Shown here in pieces: positions 1 through 22,090 of a stretch of 26,105 nucleotides of DNA. Made by a program: the position numbers and the translations under genes. Under the pieces are notes generated by a model. It ran no database searches. It was not told the DNA's origin and saw nothing but the letters and a program-made list of their open reading frames with translations. This stretch comes from an uncultured Candidatus Saccharibacteria bacterium (lineage in GTDB: Bacteria > Patescibacteriota > Minisyncoccia > Minisyncoccales > CAYTKG01), in the NCBI GenBank assembly GCA_964539465.1, contig CAZIIL010000001.1, positions 1 to 26,105 of the forward strand, in the 5' to 3' direction. The stretch's first letter is position 1; each line of letters starts with the position of its first letter.

Positions 1-474
1 AGGCTTGGATGGGATGGGGAGGTAACGCCTGATGTGTCCCTTGACGCCGAAGGCGTTGATTCCTCAACATCAGGTATTGAGGGGGGTGGAGAAATAGGAC
101 CTATGGAACAAATAGGGCAAATAGTAAAGCAAGCCCTCGCTGCGCTCGGGCTTGTATTTGAGGAAGGAGCAGCCCATATTGAGAAATTATTTGCCAAGGA
201 AATCGTGGTTGAGACAGCCAAGATTGAAAGGATAGAAATGATAGACCAAGCAACAGGAGAACCCTGGTGCACATGGATTGAAAATGGCGAATGGCTCAGG
301 GCGCAGGCATCTTGTGAAGACCTGCAACAAGGCGATGTGGAGTTGATATCTCCAAGCAGTGCAGGCGAGGAAGAAACAGGAGAAACAGAAGAGGCGTCAG
401 AGGATATTGAAGCCCAGATACAGCGTTTGCAGGAGATGATGGAGGAGTTGTTGGAAATGAGAGAAGGTCTATAG
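1..474 (+). CDS. C-terminal part (5'-truncated) of a probable large secreted/surface protein, acidic tail
   Basis: Frame is open from position 1 (RLGWDGEVTPDVSLDAEG...) to TAG at 472-474, so the gene starts outside the window. The segment LGLVFEEGAAHIEKLFAKEIVV..IEMIDQATGEPWCTWIENGEW resembles C-termini of CPR giant/tail-fibre-like proteins (recollection, unverified). Confidence 0.55.
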   Translation, partial: RLGWDGEVTPDVSLDAEGVDSSTSGIEGGGEIGPMEQIGQIVKQALAALGLVFEEGAAHIEKLFAKEIVVETAKIERIEMIDQATGEPWCTWIENGEWLRAQASCEDLQQGDVELISPSSAGEEETGETEEASEDIEAQIQRLQEMMEELLEMREGL

Positions 475-574
475 GACAAATAGGACGAATACGCCTCAAG
501 GCAAAGTTTCACTTTGCTTTAAGGGGGAGCAAGCAGATAAAATCTGCTCGCCCTGCAGAGCTTTGCTCCGCAGA
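471..574 (+). repeat. Mosaic palindromic element, copy 1
   Basis: ATAGGACAA-ATAGGACGA-ATACGC, then hairpins CAAGGCAAAG-TTTCA-CTTTGCTTT, GAGCAAGCAGAT-AAA-ATCTGCTCGC and GCAGAGCTTTGCTCCGC. Confidence 0.9.
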
Positions 575-630: not shown

Positions 631-1692
631 ATGAAAAAGAGATTATTAGTAATTGACGCTAATGCGTTGGTGCATCGGGCATATCATGCCTTGCCGCCGC
701 TGAAAACAAAGAAAGGCGAATTGGTCAACGCTGTTTATGGCTTTTTATCAGTTTTTCTGAAAACAATAAAAGAACTCAAGCCGGATTATGTGGCGGCTTG
801 TTTTGATATGCCGGGTCCGACCTTTAGGCATAAAGAGTATAAAGAATACAAGGCAACACGGCCCAAAGCGCCAGATGAATTATATGAACAGATTCCAAAA
901 ATCAAGAGCTTTTTAGATGTTTTTAATGTCCCAATTTTTGAGAAACAGGGATTTGAGGCGGACGATATTCTTGCTACTATAGCAGAGAGTATGAGTGGGA
1001 CTAATGGGACCAGTACGCAGCAAGGCAAAGATAAGCTCCGCCCTGGAGAAGAAATAGAAACAATCATACTCACCGGAGATATGGATATCTTGCAGTTGGT
1101 GGGCAAGAATACCAAAGTATTTGCTTTGAGAAAAGGCATAAAAGATATGGTTTTATACGATAGCGCTAAGGTTCAAGAAAAATACGGCCTCTCCCCTGCT
1201 CAAATATCAGATATGAAAGGGTTGATGGGCGACGCTTCTGACAATATTCCTGGAGTGCCGGGCATTGGGCCAAAGACAGCCAGCCAATTACTTCAAAACT
1301 TTGATACGCTGGAGGGGGTTTATAAAGACGGGCTGGCAGAGCCAGCCCGTCACAATAAGACCTATAAAACCAATAGGACCAATACGCTCGCCGAAGAGGC
1401 GGGGAAGAGACGGGCTGGCCAAGCCAGCCCGTCTGGCGGAGCTTCGCTCCGCAGGGAAAGCGCAATAAGCCCGAGAATAAAAGAACTGTTGCTAAAATAC
1501 AAGGAGCAAGTGTTTCTTTCAAGGATGCTGGCAACTCTTAGATATGATGTACCTGTTCGTTTTCAACTGCAGGATTGTTTGTGGAAGGATTTTAACAAAG
1601 AAAAAGCAGCCCAGATGCTAAAGGATTTCGAATTTTATAGTTTGATTCAAAGATTGCCTGGAGAGCAAAGAGAACAGCGCGCCTTGTTTTAA
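631..1692 (+). CDS. Stand-alone 5'-3' exonuclease/flap endonuclease (PolA N-terminal domain) with two repeat-derived in-frame insertions
   Basis: LVIDANALVHRAYHA, FEADDILAT, ILTGDMD, LMGDASDNIPGVPGIGPKTA (H3TH motif). No polymerase domain follows. Confidence 0.93.
   Translation: MKKRLLVIDANALVHRAYHALPPLKTKKGELVNAVYGFLSVFLKTIKELKPDYVAACFDMPGPTFRHKEYKEYKATRPKAPDELYEQIPKIKSFLDVFNVPIFEKQGFEADDILATIAESMSGTNGTSTQQGKDKLRPGEEIETIILTGDMDILQLVGKNTKVFALRKGIKDMVLYDSAKVQEKYGLSPAQISDMKGLMGDASDNIPGVPGIGPKTASQLLQNFDTLEGVYKDGLAEPARHNKTYKTNRTNTLAEEAGKRRAGQASPSGGASLRRESAISPRIKELLLKYKEQVFLSRMLATLRYDVPVRFQLQDCLWKDFNKEKAAQMLKDFEFYSLIQRLPGEQREQRALF
996..1045 (+). repeat. Degenerate mosaic element inside the exonuclease CDS
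   Basis: 996-1030 matches intergenic copy 10114-10148 at 30/35 nt; encodes GTNGTSTQQGKDKLRP. Confidence 0.75.
1328..1463 (+). repeat. Full mosaic element inside the exonuclease CDS
   Basis: ACGGGCTGGC-AGA-GCCAGCCCGT, degenerate 9-mers ending AATAGGACCAATACGC, CGCCGAAGAGGCGGGG, AGACGGGCTGGC-CAA-GCCAGCCCGTCT, GCGGAGCTTCGCTCCGC. Confidence 0.92.
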
Positions 1693-1707
1693 ACAAAAGG
1701 GGCAATG

Positions 1708-1716
1708 TGGTAAAAT
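1708..1716 (+). promoter_or_regulatory. Extended -10 promoter candidate for the signalling locus
   Basis: TG-G-TAAAAT about 50 nt upstream of the ATG at 1769. Confidence 0.4.
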
Positions 1717-1768
1717 GAGAAAAAGGCTAAAAGGTCGGGTTAGTAATTATTAATTATCAAAAAATACT

Positions 1769-3911: not shown

Positions 3912-5459
3912 ATGGATTCATTGCGACCTAAAAAAAGAGACATAAAAATCTCCTCTTTATTGGAGGACTTATCAATACTTGAAGATTACGCTCAAGACCT
4001 TTTTAATTTTTCCCCTCTACCCGTTTGTCTTATAAGCCCCGTAGGGGTGATATTAGAGGCCAATCCTGCTTTTGAAAAAATCTCCGGGTCTGAAATAGAT
4101 GGGATCATTGGTGAACCTGCTGAAAGATTCTTTGAAAAGGACCAAATTAAAGCATTGACAACTGATATTTTAAAAGGGAAGAGAGAGATTATCGAGGGCA
4201 GGGAGATAAAGTTTCTGCCTCAAGGGAAGCAATCTATGGTTGTCCATGTCTTTGCTAAGGCAAGGAATGACCAGAGCGGAGAAACCGTTGGTTATTTTTT
4301 AGGTTTTTTTAATTTAACAGAGATTAAAAATGCAGAGAAAGAATTAAAAAAGACCCAAAAAGCGCTTTTGAATATTTTAGAAGACACGAAAGGGGCAAAG
4401 GACAGGGCTGAGCAAGAAAAAGAAAAAACCCAGGCAATCATTACTAATTTTACGGACGGCCTTTTGGTTTTTGACAGGAAATATAGATTAATTCTGATAA
4501 ATCCTAAGGCAGAGAGTTTTTTGAATGTTGGGGGAAAAAAGATATATGGGAAATCTCTCTTGGAACTTGCAAAGATTTCGGAATGCAAGTCACTCATTAA
4601 ATTATTGGGAAACACAATTGAGGATATCTTCAGAAAAGAATTAGACATGGGAGAAGAATTTGTTTTAGAAGTATCAGCCATTTCTTTGAAAAAAGAAGCA
4701 GAGGGTTTTGGATACCTGGTTATTCTGCATGATATAAGCAGAGAAAAAATAATTGAAAGATTGAAGACCGAATTCGTCTCTATTTCTGCCCATCAATTAA
4801 GAACGCCTTTATCAGCTATTAAGTGGACATTGAAGATGTTGCTCGACGGAGATTTGGGAGGCATTACTGCGGAACAAAGAGAATTCTTGAACAGAACATA
4901 TGACTCAAACGAGAGGATGATTAATTTGATAAATTCTCTCCTTAATGTATCGAGGATTGAAGAGGGCAGATTTGTGTACAAGCCAGTTTTTGTCAATCTT
5001 GCTGCGATGACAAAGTCATTGTTAGATGATTATCAGGAGATGATAAAGCAGAAAGGGGTTATAATAAAATTTATAAAACCTTCTAAGCCGCTACCCAAGG
5101 TTTTTGCAGATAAAGAGAAAATAGGATTAGCGATACAGAATCTTATTGATAATGCCATCAGATATACTCCTGCCGGAAAGAAAGTAATCATTTCTCTGCG
5201 GCGCGTCAAAGATGAAGTTGAGTTTAACATCAAGGATGAGGGAGTGGGCATTCCTAAAAAGCAGCAGAATAGAATATTCACTAAATTTTTTAGAGGAACC
5301 AATGTGGTAAAGTTAGATACCGATGGTTCGGGTTTAGGGCTTTTTATCACCAAGAATATTATTAAAGCGCATAAAGGGAAAATTTGGTTTGAATCAAAGC
5401 AAAGAAAGGGCAGCACTTTTCGGTTCACCTTGCCCACTAAAACAACGCCAAAGGAATAA
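3912..5459 (+). CDS. Cytoplasmic PAS-PAS sensor histidine kinase (HisKA + HATPase_c)
   Basis: Two PAS-like segments, H-box EFVSISAHQLRTPL, N-box NLIDNAIRY, G1 DEGVGI, F-box FTKFFRG, G2 GSGLGL; no transmembrane segments seen. Confidence 0.93.
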   Translation: MDSLRPKKRDIKISSLLEDLSILEDYAQDLFNFSPLPVCLISPVGVILEANPAFEKISGSEIDGIIGEPAERFFEKDQIKALTTDILKGKREIIEGREIKFLPQGKQSMVVHVFAKARNDQSGETVGYFLGFFNLTEIKNAEKELKKTQKALLNILEDTKGAKDRAEQEKEKTQAIITNFTDGLLVFDRKYRLILINPKAESFLNVGGKKIYGKSLLELAKISECKSLIKLLGNTIEDIFRKELDMGEEFVLEVSAISLKKEAEGFGYLVILHDISREKIIERLKTEFVSISAHQLRTPLSAIKWTLKMLLDGDLGGITAEQREFLNRTYDSNERMINLINSLLNVSRIEEGRFVYKPVFVNLAAMTKSLLDDYQEMIKQKGVIIKFIKPSKPLPKVFADKEKIGLAIQNLIDNAIRYTPAGKKVIISLRRVKDEVEFNIKDEGVGIPKKQQNRIFTKFFRGTNVVKLDTDGSGLGLFITKNIIKAHKGKIWFESKQRKGSTFRFTLPTKTTPKE

Positions 5460-5563: not shown

Positions 5564-5947
5564 ATGGTGGCAAGCATAAGAAAAAAGATTTTATTAATAG
5601 AAGACGAAGAAATAATGATTGATTTACTCCAAAGGAAGTTGGAGAAAGAGGGCTACGAAGTAAAACTTGCTCGGGATGGAGAAGAGGGTTTAGAAAAAAT
5701 AAGACAGGAAATGCCGGATTTAGTTCTCTTAGACATTGTTATGCCGAAAGTGGGAGGGCTTGAGGTTATGGAAGAGATTAGCAAAGACCAAGAATTGAAA
5801 AAGAAACCAGTGATTATTATTTCCAATTCAGGCCAGCCAGTGGAATTAGAAAGAGTTAAGGAATTAGGGGCTCGAGATTGGTTGATAAAAACTGAATTTG
5901 ACCCGCAGGAGGTATTAGATAAAGTTAAGCAGCAGATAGGAAAATAA
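5564..5947 (+). CDS. Single-domain response regulator (receiver only)
   Basis: ILLIEDEE, PDLVLLDIVMP (phospho-Asp), IIISNSG, LIKTEFDP. Confidence 0.93.
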   Translation: MVASIRKKILLIEDEEIMIDLLQRKLEKEGYEVKLARDGEEGLEKIRQEMPDLVLLDIVMPKVGGLEVMEEISKDQELKKKPVIIISNSGQPVELERVKELGARDWLIKTEFDPQEVLDKVKQQIGK

Positions 5948-8796: not shown

Positions 8797-10113
8797 ATGG
8801 AGAACAAAGTGCTTTGCTTTTTTATTAATCAATATCATTTTTTGTGGGCTCTATTGGGCGCTATATTCTTTGGTTTTTTATCTTGTCTTCACAGATGCTT
8901 TAATAAGCGGGCAAAAAAGATAAAGATTATCGGAGTTACTGGGACAAGCGGCAAATCCACCGTGATTGATTTGACAGGCAATATATTAGAGGAAGCGGGC
9001 TACAGGGTTGCAACTCTGTCTTCAATCAAATTCAAGATTGGCAACCAAGAGCAGAAGAACAAAATGAGAATGACAATGCCCGGTCGGGCTGTTATTCAGA
9101 GATTTCTTTGGCAGGCAATGAGGGCTGGTTGTGAATATGCCATATTAGAGATTACATCCGAGGGAATCTTGCAGCACAGGCATAGATTCATTGATTTTAA
9201 TGCAGCGGTTTTTACCAATCTAAGTCCTGAGCATATTGAACGCCATGGCTCATTTGAGAACTACAGAGAAGCAAAAGCAAGGTTTTTTAGAGCAGTGAAA
9301 AAGACACATATAATCAATTTAGACGATAAGAATGCTGATTATTTTTTGCAATTTTCAGCAGGCAGGAAATATCTTTATAATCTCAAATCTGAATCGTCAA
9401 TCGCCAATGGTGAAATTACTGCAGAGGGCGCGGCAGTTTCAAGTTCCGGAGTAAGTTTTTCTGTAAGAGGTGTTAAGTTTAATCTGAAATTATTAGGCAG
9501 ATTTAATATCTATAATGCTCTTGCTGCAATATGTGTCGGTCTTTCTCAAGGCATTGATTTGGAAACTTGTAAAAAAGGATTAGAAAAGATAAGGGGCGTC
9601 TCGGGGAGGATGGAGTTGATCATTTCTAAGCCCTTTAGGATTTTTGTTGATTACGCCATTACCCCCAACGCATTAGAGCAGGTTTATCAAACAATTAGAC
9701 AGAACTTTCTCTCTATGGATTCTCTAAATGCACAGGGCGGGAAAATGATTTGTGTTTTTGGTTCTTGCGGCGGGGGAAGGGATAAGTGGAAGAGGCCGGT
9801 TATAGGAAGATTGGCGGCTCAATATTGCGACAAGGTGATTCTTACTAACGAAGACCCTTATGGCGAAGACCCAGAGCAGATTTTATTGGAAATAAAATCT
9901 GGAATTCCGAACGAAAAAATGCCGATAGTAAGCTTGATTTTAGACAGGCGAGCAGCTATTAAGAAAGCGCTTGATTTAGCTCGAGAAAACGACACTGTTA
10001 TTATTACTGGCAAGGGTTGCGAGCCCTCTATGTGCTTGGCAAAAGGGAAACAGATAGCATGGGACGACAGGCAAGTGGTGAGAGAAGAATTTGAGAAATT
10101 GACTAAGAGATAA
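8797..10113 (+). CDS. murE: Mur ligase, MurE-like (UDP-N-acetylmuramyl-tripeptide synthetase family)
   Basis: IGVTGTSGKST, LEITSEG, FTNLSPEHIERHG, Y.EAK, GRFNIYNALAA, VSGRME, FGSCGGGRDKWKRP, TNEDPY, IITGKG. Confidence 0.8.
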   Translation: MENKVLCFFINQYHFLWALLGAIFFGFLSCLHRCFNKRAKKIKIIGVTGTSGKSTVIDLTGNILEEAGYRVATLSSIKFKIGNQEQKNKMRMTMPGRAVIQRFLWQAMRAGCEYAILEITSEGILQHRHRFIDFNAAVFTNLSPEHIERHGSFENYREAKARFFRAVKKTHIINLDDKNADYFLQFSAGRKYLYNLKSESSIANGEITAEGAAVSSSGVSFSVRGVKFNLKLLGRFNIYNALAAICVGLSQGIDLETCKKGLEKIRGVSGRMELIISKPFRIFVDYAITPNALEQVYQTIRQNFLSMDSLNAQGGKMICVFGSCGGGRDKWKRPVIGRLAAQYCDKVILTNEDPYGEDPEQILLEIKSGIPNEKMPIVSLILDRRAAIKKALDLARENDTVIITGKGCEPSMCLAKGKQIAWDDRQVVREEFEKLTKR

Positions 10114-10222
10114 TAGGACGAATAGGACCAATACGCTGCAAGGCAAAGTGAAACTTTGCCTTGCGGGGAGGCGGGCTGGCAAAGCCAGCCCGCCCAGCGA
10201 AGCTTCGCTCCGCAGAAAAAGC
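10112..10222 (+). repeat. Mosaic element between murE and archease
   Basis: ATAGGACGA-ATAGGACCA-ATACGC, GCAAGGCAAAGTGAAACTTTGCCTTGC, GCGGGCTGGC-AAA-GCCAGCCCGC, GCGAAGCTTCGCTCCGC. Confidence 0.92.
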
Positions 10223-10636: not shown

Positions 10637-13588
10637 ATGGGGAAAAAGATATTTAAAAAAATTAATGATTATCTGTGGGAGATTCCGGCAAGCCACCGTA
10701 GGTTTATGAGGGTTCCAGCGCGGATTTATGCTTCTGAGAAAATATTAGAAGATGTGGAACCCGATGCCTTGGAGCAATTAATCAATGTTGCGTCTTTGCC
10801 TGGAATTGTCAAATATTCTTTTGCTATGCCAGACATTCATACCGGCTATGGTTTTGTTATTGGCGGCGTGGCGGCTACAAAACTTCCAGAAGGCGTGATT
10901 TCTCCCGGCGGTATCGGTTTTGACCAGAATTGCACCGTTCCCAACACAAGAGTTTTATCAAGCATGGGTTTTTACTTACCCATTAAGGACCTAGAAAAAA
11001 ACAAAACGAAAGTAAGATTTGTTGATATTGATAAGAATAATTTAGGAACTTCAGAGGTTATCCGTTTCATAAAGCAGTATAATAATCCAAGTATCTATAA
11101 GATAACTACAGAATCAGGGGAAGAATTAGAAGTTACAAAGGATCATCCCATTCAAACGGAGAGTGGCATGAAGGAGGTTAGAAATGTTAAAAATGGGGAG
11201 AAAGTATTAATTTATCCCTTCAAAGGAGTGGAATTCCAATATCCTGTTTCAGATGTTATTTTGAATGAGGAAAAATTTAGAAAAATTCTGAAAAAATTCA
11301 ATAAAACTGAGAAAGGAAATGCTATTCTGCAAATTTTAAATTATATTAAATTCCGAGGGTTTTTGCCCTTGAGATATAATTCTCCTTCCTTACCTCATAT
11401 TTTAAAAATAATGGGGTTTATTTTTGGCGATGGGGCTGTGACAATTAATAAAGACGGAAAGGGAACCGTACAGTTTTATGGGAAAAAGGAGGACTTGGAA
11501 CAAATCCGTGAAGATGTAAAAAGAATTGGCCTTGTGCCCTCGAGAATATATTCCCGAGAAAGAAACCATTCTATTACTAATTTTTATGGCAAGCAGGAAT
11601 TTACGACAACCGAGCAACACTTTAAGGTAACTACCACTGCCTTCGCACTTTACTTGGTGGCTCTCGGGACACCCTATGGCCTTAAAGCGCATCAGGAATA
11701 TAGAGTTCCAGAATGGATTTTCAATTGTCCATTATGGCAAAAGAGATTGTTTTTAGCATCTTTTTTCGGAGCTGAACTTTCAAAGCCTTCAACCTCTAAT
11801 AATAAGTATAATCTTCATGCACTACAGTTTAGTGTAAGCAAGAAAGTAGAGTTGAAAGAAAATGCAAAAATGTTTTTAGAAGATATTAAAAGACTTTTAA
11901 GCGGTTTTGAGATCGGAAGTTCGCCTATTCAAGAAGTCCCTGGTTATCAATATAATGGTAAACTCGGGAAGACAACTGCTTTTAGGCTACATATTAATGG
12001 AAATAGTGAAAATCTTATAAGATTTTTTGAGTCAATTAGCTATGAATATAATCAAGAAAGACAAAGAGAGGCTTGTTTAGCGGCCAGTTACTTAAAAAGG
12101 AAATTGAGAATAGTAGAAATTAGGACTAAGACAAGGGACAGGGCATTTGAGCTTTATAAACAGGGAGAAAAAATAAAAAATATCATTAAAAGCCTTTCCA
12201 GCAGATATGCTCCTCCTCAATTTATTAAACACTCGTTTTTCAAGAGTAAAAGAGGAAAACCAAGAATCTCTTTTGATTTTCTATCCTTTGAAGAATACAA
12301 GAAGAAATATGCTTTTGGGGAGAGTGGTTTGGTTTGGGAGAAAATTGAAAAGATAGAAGAGATTCCATACTCAGGTTCTGTTTTTGACATTACTATCAAT
12401 GATATAAATCATAACTTTATTGCTAATAACTTTGTTGTTTCAAATTGCGGGATTCGTGTTCTGAAAACAGAATACAAGAAAGAGGAAATTATGCCTTTTA
12501 TTGATAGATTGGCAACAGAAATGCAGAGACGGGTTCCGTCTGGATTAGGCAGAGGACATAAAACAAAGTTAAGCGTAGCGCAGATAGACAAAGTATTGAA
12601 AAATGGTGTTTCCTATCTTGTGAGCCAAGGATATGGCGACGAGCAAGATATAGAAAATTGCGAGGCAAGAGGCAAGATGGAGCAGGCAGATGTAGCTACG
12701 GTTTCAGAAAGAGCTAAAAATAGAGGCAGGAACCAATTGGGTACATTGGGCAGCGGCAACCATTTTCTTGAAGTCCAAAAAGTTGAGGAAATTTTTGACG
12801 AACAAACAGCCAAAGTTTTTGGGCTTTTTGAGAATCAAGTAGTAGTAATGATTCATACGGGTTCCAGAGGGTTAGGGCATCAAAATTGTACTGATTATTT
12901 GAGGATTGTAATGAAAGCAATGCCGAAGTATGGGATAAGCCTGCCGGATAAGGAATTGGCGTGTGTTCCATTTAATTCTTCTGAGGGGCAGAGATTTTTT
13001 GGGGCTATGTCGGCTGCTGCTAACTTTGCGTGGGGAAATCGACATATGATAAGCCATTATGTCAGGAGAGCGTGGCAGGATGTTTTGGGCAAGGAAGCAA
13101 AGCTTGACTTGCTTTATGATGTTGCCCATAACATTGCTAAGGTTGAAGAGCATATAATTGATGGCAAGAAAATGAAATTATGTGTTCATCGCAAAGGCGC
13201 GACAAGGGCTTTCCCGCCAGGGCATTTGGAGATTCCAGCGCAATATAGGACTGTTGGCCAGCCGGTTTTAATTCCTGGTTCTATGGGAACTGCTTCTTAT
13301 ATTTTAGCCGGAACAGAACAAGGCAGCCCATCTTTTTTCTCAACCTGCCACGGCGCTGGCAGAAGGATGTCGCGAACCAGAGCAAGAAAAACTATTTCAG
13401 GGGAACAAGTTATTGAGGAGTTGAAAAGAAAAGGAATCTTGGTAAGATGTTATTCAGTAAGGGGTATTGCCGAAGAAGCGCCTCTTTCTTATAAAGATGT
13501 TGATAATGTGGTTGAGGTTGTGCATCAGGCAGGCCTGGCAAAAAAAGTAGCGAGGTTGGTGCCCTTGGCTGTTATTAAAGGAGAATAA
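10637..13588 (+). CDS. rtcB: RNA-splicing/repair ligase RtcB, intein-containing (478-aa extein)
   Basis: MPDIHTGYG, GGIGFDQN|CGIR, GSGNHFLE, HTGSRG, HNIAK, HRKGATRA, STCHGAGR. Confidence 0.96.
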   Translation: MGKKIFKKINDYLWEIPASHRRFMRVPARIYASEKILEDVEPDALEQLINVASLPGIVKYSFAMPDIHTGYGFVIGGVAATKLPEGVISPGGIGFDQNCTVPNTRVLSSMGFYLPIKDLEKNKTKVRFVDIDKNNLGTSEVIRFIKQYNNPSIYKITTESGEELEVTKDHPIQTESGMKEVRNVKNGEKVLIYPFKGVEFQYPVSDVILNEEKFRKILKKFNKTEKGNAILQILNYIKFRGFLPLRYNSPSLPHILKIMGFIFGDGAVTINKDGKGTVQFYGKKEDLEQIREDVKRIGLVPSRIYSRERNHSITNFYGKQEFTTTEQHFKVTTTAFALYLVALGTPYGLKAHQEYRVPEWIFNCPLWQKRLFLASFFGAELSKPSTSNNKYNLHALQFSVSKKVELKENAKMFLEDIKRLLSGFEIGSSPIQEVPGYQYNGKLGKTTAFRLHINGNSENLIRFFESISYEYNQERQREACLAASYLKRKLRIVEIRTKTRDRAFELYKQGEKIKNIIKSLSSRYAPPQFIKHSFFKSKRGKPRISFDFLSFEEYKKKYAFGESGLVWEKIEKIEEIPYSGSVFDITINDINHNFIANNFVVSNCGIRVLKTEYKKEEIMPFIDRLATEMQRRVPSGLGRGHKTKLSVAQIDKVLKNGVSYLVSQGYGDEQDIENCEARGKMEQADVATVSERAKNRGRNQLGTLGSGNHFLEVQKVEEIFDEQTAKVFGLFENQVVVMIHTGSRGLGHQNCTDYLRIVMKAMPKYGISLPDKELACVPFNSSEGQRFFGAMSAAANFAWGNRHMISHYVRRAWQDVLGKEAKLDLLYDVAHNIAKVEEHIIDGKKMKLCVHRKGATRAFPPGHLEIPAQYRTVGQPVLIPGSMGTASYILAGTEQGSPSFFSTCHGAGRRMSRTRARKTISGEQVIEELKRKGILVRCYSVRGIAEEAPLSYKDVDNVVEVVHQAGLAKKVARLVPLAVIKGE
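10931..12445 (+). mobile_element. Intein with LAGLIDADG homing endonuclease (505 aa)
   Basis: N-terminal Cys (CTVPNTRV), block B (TKDHPI), block C IMGFIFGDG, block E FLASFFGAEL, C-terminus FDITI..NHNFIANNFVVSN followed by Cys+1. Confidence 0.93.
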
Positions 13589-15083: not shown

Positions 15084-16700
15084 TTAGAGGTTTTTTACCA
15101 TATAGGTGTTTTTGAGCCGATAGCCCAATTTGCGATAATAATCTCTGACTCCGATACCAGCAATCACGGATATTTTTTTCAAGCCGAACTCATCCTTTGC
15201 AATACTTTCTGCGCTTTTGATTAATTGCTTTCCCAAGCCCTTATGCTGTGGTGAAATCATGGAGTCCTGTCCTCTGTGGTTTGTTTTTAAGGAAAGTTGT
15301 GGCCCAAAGGTTTGGATTTCACGAATAATAGCAGTACGAGAAGTGTTCTCGCATTGAATTCGCAATCTGAGTAAACTGAAAAGCTTTGTTCTCTCTTTGT
15401 TTTCAAAACTAAGAAAAATCTCTTTGCCGCCAGATGCCTCATAATCTTCGCGAAAAAGATTAATTTTTTCTTGGGGGCAATATCTTGCTCTTACCTCGCG
15501 GCAGCGGATGCAATGACATCTCTTGTTCTGCTTTTTTAATTCCAGCGCTACAACCTCTCTTAGATTTGAAGCCCTACAGCCGGCAATGATACTATATGAA
15601 GGAATATCACGGAATATTCTTGCAACCCTAACCCAATAAGGCAGATGTGTTTTGATTGTAATCAATAGTTTAACCAGTTGTTTGCAAGAGTATGGTTTAT
15701 ATCCACCCCCTTTCCACACATTCAAGAGTTTTGTTTTCGGGCAGACAACACAGGGGTAAATTTTGAGCCAATCAGGCCTGAATCTTGCGTCGTTGAAAAG
15801 AATTTGAAAGCATTCTAAATCCCTGCTTAGATTAGAGCCGGGCAGATTGGGCATTATTTGGTAAAGAACCTTAAATCCAGCATTCTTTAGTATTTGGGTG
15901 GCTTGGCTAATCTTTTGGACAGCCATTCCTGTGCGGCATTTTTTCAGAATATCGTCAAAGACGGTTTGAACTCCTAACTCTACCAGTGTTACGCCCAATT
16001 TTCTCAACCGTAAGACCTCTTTTCTATCAATAAAATCAGGTCTAGTTTCAATAGATAAGCCGACAATTCTATTCCTGGCTGTTTCATTTTTCTTTTGAAC
16101 TTTTCCCAGCAGAACAAGTCCCTTTTTATTAGGGACACGTTTCGTTTTAACATGCCCTATTTTAAACTCATTAGCCGCTTGGAAGCAGCGCTTAATAAAC
16201 CATGTCTGATATTGCTTTGGATAAAAGGACCATGTTCCGCCAACAATTCTTAATTCGATTTTATCAATAGGATGACCCTGATAATTCAATGACTCTAATC
16301 TCTTCTGAACCTGAAGATAGGGATCGAAGCCGAGGGCCTTTGCCCTGTCAGCAGCTGGTTCGCCGCTGACATAACTCTTAGGAAATCCTTTTTCGGTTGG
16401 ACAGTAGATACATTGGCCAGGGCAGGGGTATGGCTTGGTTAAGACAGAGATATTGACAATGCCAGACAAGGAGCGGATGGGCCGGGTTATCAAGAGATTC
16501 TCAATAATTTTTGACTTCCTGATTGTTTTATTTTTTACTAATCTATGATAGATTTTTAGCAAGTCGACATTAGACGGAAAAGATGTCCCAAATTCTTTTG
16601 CAAATCTGCGCTTTGTCTTTTCTAAATTCTCCCGACTACCGATGTTGTGGTCAGCGAGATACTTAACGAGTAGCTTCTTTTGCTTTTTATGCTCTATCAT
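15084..16700 (-). CDS. elp3: Elp3-family tRNA uridine(34) acetyltransferase (radical SAM + GNAT)
   Basis: RSLSGI..ISVLTKPYPCPGQCIYCP, PKSYVSGEPA, GGTW, ETRPD, VELGVQ, MPNLPG, LKIYP, CIRCRE, QHKGLG, VIAGIGVRDYYRKLGY. Confidence 0.93.
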   Translation of the reverse strand: MIEHKKQKKLLVKYLADHNIGSRENLEKTKRRFAKEFGTSFPSNVDLLKIYHRLVKNKTIRKSKIIENLLITRPIRSLSGIVNISVLTKPYPCPGQCIYCPTEKGFPKSYVSGEPAADRAKALGFDPYLQVQKRLESLNYQGHPIDKIELRIVGGTWSFYPKQYQTWFIKRCFQAANEFKIGHVKTKRVPNKKGLVLLGKVQKKNETARNRIVGLSIETRPDFIDRKEVLRLRKLGVTLVELGVQTVFDDILKKCRTGMAVQKISQATQILKNAGFKVLYQIMPNLPGSNLSRDLECFQILFNDARFRPDWLKIYPCVVCPKTKLLNVWKGGGYKPYSCKQLVKLLITIKTHLPYWVRVARIFRDIPSYSIIAGCRASNLREVVALELKKQNKRCHCIRCREVRARYCPQEKINLFREDYEASGGKEIFLSFENKERTKLFSLLRLRIQCENTSRTAIIREIQTFGPQLSLKTNHRGQDSMISPQHKGLGKQLIKSAESIAKDEFGLKKISVIAGIGVRDYYRKLGYRLKNTYMVKNL

Positions 16701-17447: not shown

Positions 17448-17519
17448 GTCCCTGTAGTCCAATGGATAGAACATCGGCCTCCGGAGCCGAAGATGCGCGT
17501 TCGAATCGCGCCAGGGACA
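17448..17519 (+). tRNA. tRNA-Arg (anticodon CCG), CCA not encoded
   Basis: Acceptor GTCCCTG/CAGGGAC, anticodon arm TCGGC-CTCCGGA-GCCGA, T-arm GCGCG-TTCGAAT-CGCGC. Confidence 0.96.
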
Positions 17520-17520
17520 C

Positions 17521-17668
17521 ATAGGACACATAGGAAAAAATAGGACGAATAAGAAAAATAGGACATATAGGACCGATAGGACCAATACGCCCGCCGAAGA
17601 AGCGGGGAAGAGCCAGCCCGCGCAGCGGAACTTTACTCCGCTTTGCTCTGGGGAGCGTCGGGCAACGC
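17521..17668 (+). repeat. Mosaic element with the longest 9-mer array (7 units), abutting the tRNA 3' end
   Basis: ATAGGACAC, ATAGGAAAA(A), ATAGGACGA, ATAAGAAAA, ATAGGACAT, ATAGGACCG, ATAGGACCA, then ATACGC, CCGCCGAAGAAGCGG, GCCAGCCCGC, GCGGAACTTTACTCCGC. Confidence 0.92.
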
Positions 17669-20449: not shown

Positions 20450-21922
20450 ATGACAAAGAGATTCTATGTCACCACAGCAATAGATTATGTTAATGCTCCT
20501 CCCCATATAGGCCATGCTCTAGAGAAGATACAAGCGGATGTATTGGCAAGGTATCATCGTTTTTTGAAAGAGGATGTTTTTTTTCTAACCGGTACGGATG
20601 ATAATGCTCAAAAGAATGTGCAGGCGGCTGATAAACAAGGACTTCCCATACAGGAATTCACCAATAGAAACGCAGCGGTTTTTAAAGAAATGGGAAAACT
20701 CTTAAATGTATCTAACAACGACTTTATCCGAACCAGCAGCAAGTCCGAACATTGGCCAGGGGTAGTTAAACTCTGGCAGGAATGTCAAAAAGCAGGCGAT
20801 ATTTATCAAAAAGAATATTCGGGACTTTATTGCTTGGGGTGCGAGGCATTTATAACGGAAAAGGACCTGGAAAACGGGCTTTGCCCAGAACACCTGAAAG
20901 CGCCGGAGCGGGTTTCTGAGAAGAACTATTTTTTTCGTCTTTCAAGATATCAAGACAAATTAAAGAGATTAATTAAAAGCGATAAATTAAGGATTGTTCC
21001 AGAGAAAAGAAAGAATGAAACCCTAAAGTTTATTGAGTCGGGCTTGGAGGATTTCAGCGTTTCGCGGCCAGCCGAACGGATGAAAAACTGGGGCATTCCT
21101 GTCCCCGGCGATAATAGCCAGATTATCTATGTCTGGTATGACGCCCTAAGCAACTATATTACTGGCTTGGGCTATGGAAGAAAGGACAATAAATTATTTA
21201 AAAGATTCTGGCCAGCCGATGTCCATGTTATAGGCAAGGGAATTCTGCGTTTCCATGCGGTTTTTTGGCCTGCTATGATACTTTCTACTGGATTAGAATT
21301 GCCTCGGACAATATTTGTTCATGACTATATCACTGTTGGTGGGCAAAAGATGTCAAAGACAATAGGAAACATTATTAACCCTATTGAGTTGGTAGAGAAA
21401 TATGGGACAGACCCTGTCAGATATTTTTTCCTAAGGGAGTTTTCTCCCTTCCAAGATGGAGATTTTTCCTACAAGCGATTGGAAGATAGATATAATTCTG
21501 ATTTAGCAAAAGGGTTAGGAAATTTGACGGCCAGGATTCTAACAATGGCTCAAAAAACATTTACGGAAAGTGTTAAGTATAACCCCGATTCTCAATTTAA
21601 GAGTTTATTTGAAAAAACTACAAAACAGATAGGACAGCATATGCAGAACTTTCGTTTTAATGATGCTGTAGCCGCTGTCTGGCAGTTGATAGGATTCTGC
21701 GATAGATATATTGAGAAAGAGCGACCATGGGAAGAAGGAAAAGAACAGGCGCTCAATAATCTGCTTGCCGCTTTATCCCACATTGCTTTAAGTCTGCAGC
21801 CGTTTTTGCCAGGTACTTCAGAAAAGATTTTTAAACAATTGGGGATAAAGAATAAAAGCAAACCATTATTATTCAGGGTTGGAAAAGGTGAGTCACTATT
21901 TCCCCGCTTGGAAAAGGAATAG
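20450..21922 (+). CDS. metG: Methionine--tRNA ligase (short form)
   Basis: FYVTTAIDYVNAPPHIGH, TGTDDNAQK, YCLGCE, CPEH, YVWYDAL, GKGILRFH, KMSKT. Confidence 0.97.
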   Translation: MTKRFYVTTAIDYVNAPPHIGHALEKIQADVLARYHRFLKEDVFFLTGTDDNAQKNVQAADKQGLPIQEFTNRNAAVFKEMGKLLNVSNNDFIRTSSKSEHWPGVVKLWQECQKAGDIYQKEYSGLYCLGCEAFITEKDLENGLCPEHLKAPERVSEKNYFFRLSRYQDKLKRLIKSDKLRIVPEKRKNETLKFIESGLEDFSVSRPAERMKNWGIPVPGDNSQIIYVWYDALSNYITGLGYGRKDNKLFKRFWPADVHVIGKGILRFHAVFWPAMILSTGLELPRTIFVHDYITVGGQKMSKTIGNIINPIELVEKYGTDPVRYFFLREFSPFQDGDFSYKRLEDRYNSDLAKGLGNLTARILTMAQKTFTESVKYNPDSQFKSLFEKTTKQIGQHMQNFRFNDAVAAVWQLIGFCDRYIEKERPWEEGKEQALNNLLAALSHIALSLQPFLPGTSEKIFKQLGIKNKSKPLLFRVGKGESLFPRLEKE

Positions 21923-21987
21923 GATACATAGGACCAAATAGGATTAATACGCCGCAAGGCAAAGTGAAACTTTGCCTTGCGGCGTAT
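21918..21987 (+). repeat. Mosaic element with a perfect 19-bp hairpin
   Basis: 9-mer-like units followed by ATACGCCGCAAGGCAAAGT-GAA-ACTTTGCCTTGCGGCGTAT. Confidence 0.92.
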
Positions 21988-22023
21988 GTAATTGTTCAAT
22001 CTTCCAGATTAAACAATTGGAGA

Positions 22024-22075
22024 TATTGCTTTTTCGGCAGATTTGTGTTATAAGGGCACAATGTTGCTCTTTACT
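22024..22075 (+). promoter_or_regulatory. Duplicated promoter/leader, copy 1
   Basis: TTGCTT-17 nt-TATAAG; 47/52 identical to 22595-22646; followed by AGGAGGTGA. Confidence 0.75.
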
Positions 22076-22090
22076 TTAGGAGGTGAAGAC

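Follow-up and report, generated by a model that had tools for sequence, protein, structure and literature searches.

A probable relic of a modular intergenic repeat, inserted in frame in the 5'-3' exonuclease gene of a Patescibacterium

The window (the whole stretch of DNA analysed here, 26,105 nt) contains a 5'-3' exonuclease gene in which nucleotides 994-1047, here called site 1, are probably what remains of an old insertion of a modular repeat that the genome carries between its genes. The insert, made up of 9-mer array A, TACGC and hairpin B1, would already have been in place before the lineage of the window separated from that of contig L001. A second and much younger mosaic of the same repeat would have entered the other permissive loop of the gene, at 1329-1467 (site 2), in the window's lineage only. 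The features referred to below are:

471-575, + strand: intergenic copy (A-B1-C2-D) upstream of the nuclease gene, orthologous to L001 1552-1675 (profile; comparison with L001)
631-1692, + strand: host gene, stand-alone 5'-3' exonuclease / flap endonuclease (FEN) of 353 aa, P0001 (Pfam)
994-1011, + strand: relic of module A, two degenerate 9-mers, AGTGGGACT and AATGGGACC (consensus AATAGGACC), read S-G-T-N-G-T
1012-1030, + strand: well-preserved A-B1 junction (AGTACGC-AG) and B1 5' arm (CAAGGCAAAG), lying within both the 30/35 match and the nhmmer alignment
1031-1047, + strand: loop of B1 and decayed 3' arm (ATAAGCTCCGCCCTGGA), pairing with the 5' arm lost (nhmmer alignment; folding)
1329-1467, + strand: second and, most simply, younger in-frame mosaic, C1-A-B2-C1-D, hairpins intact (folding; absence from L001)
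10112-10216, + strand: reference intergenic copy (A-B1-C1-D), directly 3' of the murE stop codon (profile; folding)

The host gene and the repeat family

The product of the host gene contains the Pfam domains PF02739 (E 8.5e-52) and PF01367 (E 2.8e-28), and its catalytic acidic residues are all invariant across the orthologue alignment (A1). Its closest kin are proteins of other Patescibacteria (Parcubacteria, Pacebacteria, Nealsonbacteria), and comparison with the L001 orthologue gives a dN/dS ratio of 0.08 outside both loops. One homologue of 505 aa (P0003) has approximately 180 nuclease-domain residues duplicated internally, which may be an assembly artefact or a real tandem duplication.

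Module A of the repeat is a tandem array of 9-mers (ATAGGACNN) terminating in ATACGC. In the window it is followed by hairpin B1 (CGCAAGGCAAAGTGAAACTTTGCCTTGCG) or B2 (CCGCCGAAGAGGCGG), then by C1 or C2, and then by D, the combinations found being A-B1-C1-D, A-B1-C2-D, A-B2-C2-D-D, A-B2-C1'-D and C1-A-B2-C1-D. The A motif has 12 matches against 0.17 expected, as befits a multi-copy dispersed family. Every array in the window lies on the + strand and points in the same direction, and most begin at a stop codon or just past one. In the mosaic upstream of the nuclease gene (471-575) compensatory changes relative to L001 preserve the hairpin stems. C1 has the ends GACG..CGTC only where it occurs at site 2 (two copies); between genes its ends are GGCG..CGCC or similar. 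Modules B1 and D are without a GTAG/CGTC tag. Rfam holds no family matching the element, a literature search with the literal repeat strings matched no paper, and PF05635 and PF13366 genes are absent from the window. A metagenome scan for the B1 hairpin gave a single locus, L017, a copy of the accessory region at ~21.9 kb; positions 1340-1553 of this JGI contig correspond to window 21918-22079, with the same A-B1 copy and the following accessory-gene leader, and the upstream gene differs.

Site 1 as a decayed in-frame copy

The earlier note had matched 996-1030 to the intergenic sequence at 10114-10148 at 30 of 35 positions. This was reproduced, the best value in 2000 dinucleotide shuffles of the gene being 23/35; with 10114 as query, position 996 ranks third among all window positions, after the self-match and the copy at 472 (31/35). 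An nhmmer profile of A+B1, built from nine other copies in the window, L001 and L017 with site 1 excluded, aligned to exactly 996-1045, ungapped over profile positions 3-52 (22.1 bits, E=2.4e-6; 38 of 50 nt identical to the consensus), so that site 1 can be regarded, as was claimed, as an in-frame copy of the same modular element. Two 9-mers are joined canonically to B1 (20 of 22 positions at the junction), and the 5' arm proper, after the TACGC junction, occupies 1021-1030. An assignment of the tail (1029-1053) to the 3' part of module D (18/25) was set aside in favour of the ungapped B1 alignment.

The decay of the 3' arm noted earlier is evident from folding. The site-1 arm is CTCCGCCCTG and its intergenic counterpart CTTTGCCTTG, and the hairpin folds at -5.8 kcal/mol (z +0.74) compared with -23.7 kcal/mol (z -6.3) in the intergenic copy. 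Site 1 is therefore no longer palindromic, although the family consensus folds (z -6.3), and this is consistent with a decayed relic. In both 9-mer units, moreover, TAG/AGG has changed to TGG/GGG.

A chance similarity, or a native loop sequence that happens to resemble the repeat, could be entertained given that the loop varies among orthologues, and that a neighbouring stretch claimed as a third coding copy (94-123, IGx frame) does not itself reach significance (nhmmer E 0.51), has the same length as in its L018 homologue and is probably native coding sequence. For site 1, where 30/35 was observed against a best shuffle of 23/35 and the profile gave a 50-nt ungapped alignment with an E of 2.4e-6, the shuffle and profile results refute this explanation, to which we assign practically no probability.

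Site 1 is read in frame, without a stop, as part of a conserved ORF. The span EADD..xGDxD measures 35 aa here, 23 aa in 66 of 107 orthologues (the mode) and 19 aa in a further 12, so that the loop is 12 aa longer than the mode and 16 aa longer than the 19-aa type; Mycobacterium Pol I (6vde) and Taq Pol I (1taq) have 16-residue gaps aligned opposite site 1. The extra length, put in the earlier note at about 15-20 residues between ADDILAT and IILTGD, is thus real. Unrelated expansions of this loop are present in ~19% of orthologues; length by itself is consequently unspecific, and it is homology to the repeat that identifies the insert. In the AlphaFold2 model (mean pLDDT 83) helix 110-122 is joined to strand 142-148 by a coil (residues 123-141), in which the pLDDT of residues 125-131 falls below 50, so the additional residues fall in a predicted disordered and structurally tolerant coil. 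An insertion of ~48 nt would have entered this loop of the nuclease domain in frame, and would have been tolerated because the loop is, according to the model, a disordered surface coil away from the catalytic carboxylates.

Age and remodelling of the two sites

Among 5.8 billion proteins the sole close orthologue is P0002, encoded on L001. Outside the two loops the two genes are 91.8% identical (dS 0.354, dN 0.029). L001 has an insert at the same site, with both host junctions common to the window and with the same non-canonical tail, GGCAAAG-ATAAGC-YCYGCYCT (GGCAAAGATAAGC), carrying the same derived states (GAT, AAG) relative to the B1 consensus; the L001 copy is also already unfolded. The homology of this insert, in its junctions and derived tail, supports an origin of site 1 before the split. 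It agrees with the description of site 1 as the older of the two copies, since L001 has the site-1 insert without the site-2 mosaic, and site 1 is unfolded while site 2 folds strongly (z -8.35).

Site 1 itself evolves almost neutrally. Between the window and L001 its dN is 0.47 and its dS 0.62 (dN/dS ~0.75), with dN ~16 times the core value. A canonical element would encode QGKVKLCLAG; the window has QGKDKLRPGE and L001 HGKDKPCSQE, with polar residues or proline now at the hydrophobic positions of the canonical peptide. Such replacements would alone destroy the 3' arm of the hairpin, and we infer selection for a hydrophilic loop. After insertion, evolution would have been nearly unconstrained, with mutation of the 3' arm and of TAG/AGG in both 9-mers. 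Both alleles are real and fixed: contigs from three salt-marsh runs (X2, X3, X5) span site 1 without differences, and an L001-like allele is present in a separate marine run. We considered whether the nuclease has put the insert to use as a functional loop, for instance in binding a partner. In favour of such co-option, the insert has been kept in both lineages since a dS of ~0.35 and its hydrophobic positions have been replaced by polar ones; the elevated dN with a dN/dS of ~0.75, the length changes between lineages and the disordered, low-confidence AlphaFold2 model at site 1 nevertheless make co-option very unlikely.

The earlier account of site 1 stood in that the event is separate from that at 1329-1467, and needs qualifying in that site 1 is not one simple hit. 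The alleles of the window and L001 differ by +9 and -30 nt, that is by one 9-mer unit and by a 30-nt block with a B2-type hairpin. In L001 a single 9-mer is followed by this hairpin (A-B2), ahead of the shared decayed B1 tail, and a profile from two window copies matches the A-B2 part with an E of 1.7e-5. To judge from these sequences, site 1 appears to have been remodelled, or struck again, after the split (A-B1 here, A-B2 in L001), which is new here. As there is one close orthologue only, the ancestral state rests on two sequences; these cannot settle the order of events, though the canonical A-B1 junction of the window (20/22) would favour A-B1 as the ancestral insert, to which L001 later added.

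Two other explanations bear on this history. If the loop is a hot spot, A-B1 could have entered it in the window and A-B2 in L001 as independent inserts, and site 1 would then not be older than the split. The module beside the 9-mers does differ between the two, and unrelated repeats have colonised the same loops independently in other lineages; yet both host junctions are common to the window and L001, the non-canonical tail has the same derived substitutions against the B1 consensus in both, and both copies are already unfolded, which leaves independent inserts improbable. The other concerns mechanism only. The insertion may have involved a transposase acting in trans, recombination or template switching. 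As a possible, if not the probable, alternative to transposition, gene conversion, template switching or break repair may have copied a patch of an intergenic repeat into the gene, with microhomology to the 9-mer (host ACTATAGCA) assisting. Consistent with copying, the modules recombine freely into mosaics, the window and L001 differ by the gain or loss of a 9-nt unit, the edge of the upstream mosaic coincides exactly with a break in synteny, and target-site duplications and inverted termini are absent; nothing tested argues directly against it, and it leaves intact the preferred reading of site 1 as repeat-derived, old and in frame.

Elements have been gained or lost elsewhere, too, since the split. 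The spacer downstream of the nuclease gene (window 1693-1768, L001:2714-3013) is an empty/filled pair, with 5 nt (AAGGC) in the window against a 235-nt mosaic in L001. The pair shows no target duplication, and the empty site reads AAAAGGCTAAAAGGTCG, loosely like two 9-mer units. Of the hallmarks of a MITE, target-site duplication and terminal inverted repeats, neither is visible at site 1 or at this spacer. Upstream of the nuclease gene (window 455-475, L001:1540-1556), synteny breaks exactly at the 5' edge of the mosaic, which in the window is preceded by the gene for a large WCTWIENGEW-type protein and in L001 by that for YceG.

The mosaic at site 2 is 139 nt long and folds at -78 kcal/mol (z -8.35) into a perfect set of hairpins. 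The loop measures 47 aa in the window and 19 aa in L001, which has no mosaic. Being absent from L001 and with its hairpins intact, site 2 is most simply younger than the split and confined to the window's lineage.

The reading frames of the two sites are the same, as had been claimed: AGT-GGG-ACT / AAT-GGG-ACC at site 1 corresponds to the AAT-AGG-ACN frame of 1354-1380 in site 2. In the intergenic mosaics only the TAG frame is closed without exception. Most of these mosaics leave the NRT frame open and several the IGP frame, and the reverse frames are mostly open as well, so that four of the six frames are usually open. Two copies would consequently both fall in the NRT frame by chance with a probability of ~0.25-0.5. 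Of the proposal of repeated insertion with frame selection, the two separate events of different ages hold, and the sharing of a frame argues only weakly for selection. A protein search for NRT-frame peptide signatures, suggested as a check, gave nothing real: the representative protein search returned two spurious high-GC repeat ORFs only, and the region search the query alone.

Related repeats and the same loops in other lineages

Insertion in frame into protein-coding genes is known from the Rickettsia palindromic elements, or RPEs (Ogata et al. 2000, as reviewed in PMC10969869). Like these, the element is a dispersed palindromic repeat which lies within a conserved gene, is read in frame, contributes a peptide at a tolerant site and is present in copies of different age. 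Unlike the RPEs, which are a single element of ~150 bp, it is a mosaic of a tandem 9-mer array and interchangeable short hairpins; its host is a free-living or episymbiotic Patescibacterium, and the site-1 copy has lost its palindrome. The REPs of the GTAG/CGTC super-families, described by Di Nocera et al. (2013, PMC3733652), lie mostly just 3' of ORFs and sometimes supply the TAG stop. Those within genes are often in replication or repair genes, and in some cases one ORF contains two of them, or related species have them at the same site. The resemblance extends to short hairpin repeats mostly 3' of ORFs, also inside genes and twice in one repair gene. By the GTAG/CGTC tetranucleotide at the stem-loop end, however, the window's elements do not belong here, there being no consistent tag (CGTC ends occur only in the two C1 hairpins of site 2), and a 9-mer array leads the hairpins.

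The BIMEs of enterobacteria are composite intergenic elements made from a small kit of hairpins and linkers in varied combinations (PMC2817692). The repeat copies of the window likewise combine a common kit of modules in varying ways, but they all point one way and start with tandem 9-mers, whereas BIMEs alternate REP orientations. Short tandem repeats of 7-9 nt are found between genes as the TAACTGA repeats of Beggiatoaceae (PMC4679880) and the heptamers of Xanthomonas and Nostoc (PMC4692102). Module A resembles them as a short-unit tandem array right after stop codons, and such arrays recur across phyla; those reports concern intergenic arrays, and do not describe a decayed copy that is joined to a hairpin and read in frame within a gene. 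The element of the window works like RPEs and intragenic REPs without being a member of those sequence families, in which it was not filed for want of a consistent GTAG/CGTC tag, terminal inverted repeats or target-site duplication. The kind of event is itself already known from them; in the literature searched we found no report of in-frame intragenic repeats of this kind in Patescibacteria.

The two nuclease loops are recurrent landing pads for unrelated repeats in other lineages of Patescibacteria, which is new here. L018 (P0072), a syntenic relative, has an unrelated hairpin (AGAGGTCAAACCTCC..GGAGGATTGACCTCT) that occupies the two loops of its nuclease orthologue and recurs in the large gene upstream, in frame in each case and always read as EVKPPP..GGLTS; it is also found in the rpsT-ruvA spacer, where the window has a mosaic. 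A second L018 hairpin family occurs in site 2 and in a radical-SAM gene. The copies on L018 are:

738-799, 5284-5323, 5656-5791, 11262-11300, 5826-5872 and 15443-15482: L018 hairpin-family copies, all strongly folding (z -4 to -6.7)

A third lineage (L020:742-795, P0014; same peptide in P0023) has a 16-aa insert at site 1 (EGEEDESSSTPFAIAR), the DNA of which contains an 8-bp perfect hairpin, GAAGAGGA..TCCTCTTC (z -2.3), with no further copies on the 9.9-kb contig. In L021 (P0011) there is a heptamer array at site 1 and a small 9-mer foldback at site 2. Just upstream of this orthologous gene (L021:1097-10000) are two PF05635 (23S rRNA IVP) genes, both of which have heptamer arrays on their flanks (TTACTGA direct; GAAAATC/CGATTTTC inverted). 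The same region includes a DGR (RVT_1 + bAvd) and a weak RAYT-like Y1 transposase gene (39.9 bits, below the cut-off of 80).

Module A is not lineage-specific, since 15 genomes from about ten phyla (genome contigs L002-L016) contain exact matches to TAGGACNNATAGGACNNATACGC, with some four chance matches estimated. The motif is always in intergenic arrays (e.g. L006:5617-5681, L003:15-43 and 5263-5285, L016:6344-6385), often with an inverted partner array, and several loci have more than one array; the hosts include Acidobacteriota, Planctomycetota, Lentisphaerota, Desulfobacterota, Nitrospirota, Cloacimonadota, Bacteroidales and Armatimonadota. In three different phyla a tRNA gene has a 9-mer array at its 3' end or within ~55 nt of that end (window 17448-17590, L003:5263-5373, L016:6217-6385).

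Speculatively, and with more doubt than confidence, we suggest that in this clade of Patescibacteria a few permissive sites (the two FEN loops, the tail of the large protein encoded upstream and the rpsT-ruvA spacer) are repeatedly colonised by whichever short hairpin or tandem-repeat family a lineage has. Insertion would then either be so frequent that tolerant sites become saturated, or be directed at genes of replication and repair. The 9-mer module (ATAGGACNN) would form part of a vocabulary, common to several phyla, of arrays that follow stop codons and tRNA 3' ends. If this were true, repeat insertion would be a main source of loop expansion in the reduced proteomes of this clade.

CPR genomes are usually regarded as streamlined. 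The nuclease gene provides a dated, two-stage example of selfish intergenic repeats becoming protein sequence, both stages being found in one essential gene, as a fresh copy with perfect hairpins and as an old copy that is unfolded and polar. It extends to the ultrasmall CPR bacteria a phenomenon of Rickettsia and the REP-rich proteobacteria, and it is a caution, when CPR proteins are annotated, that a loop insertion may have come from a repeat instead of serving a function.
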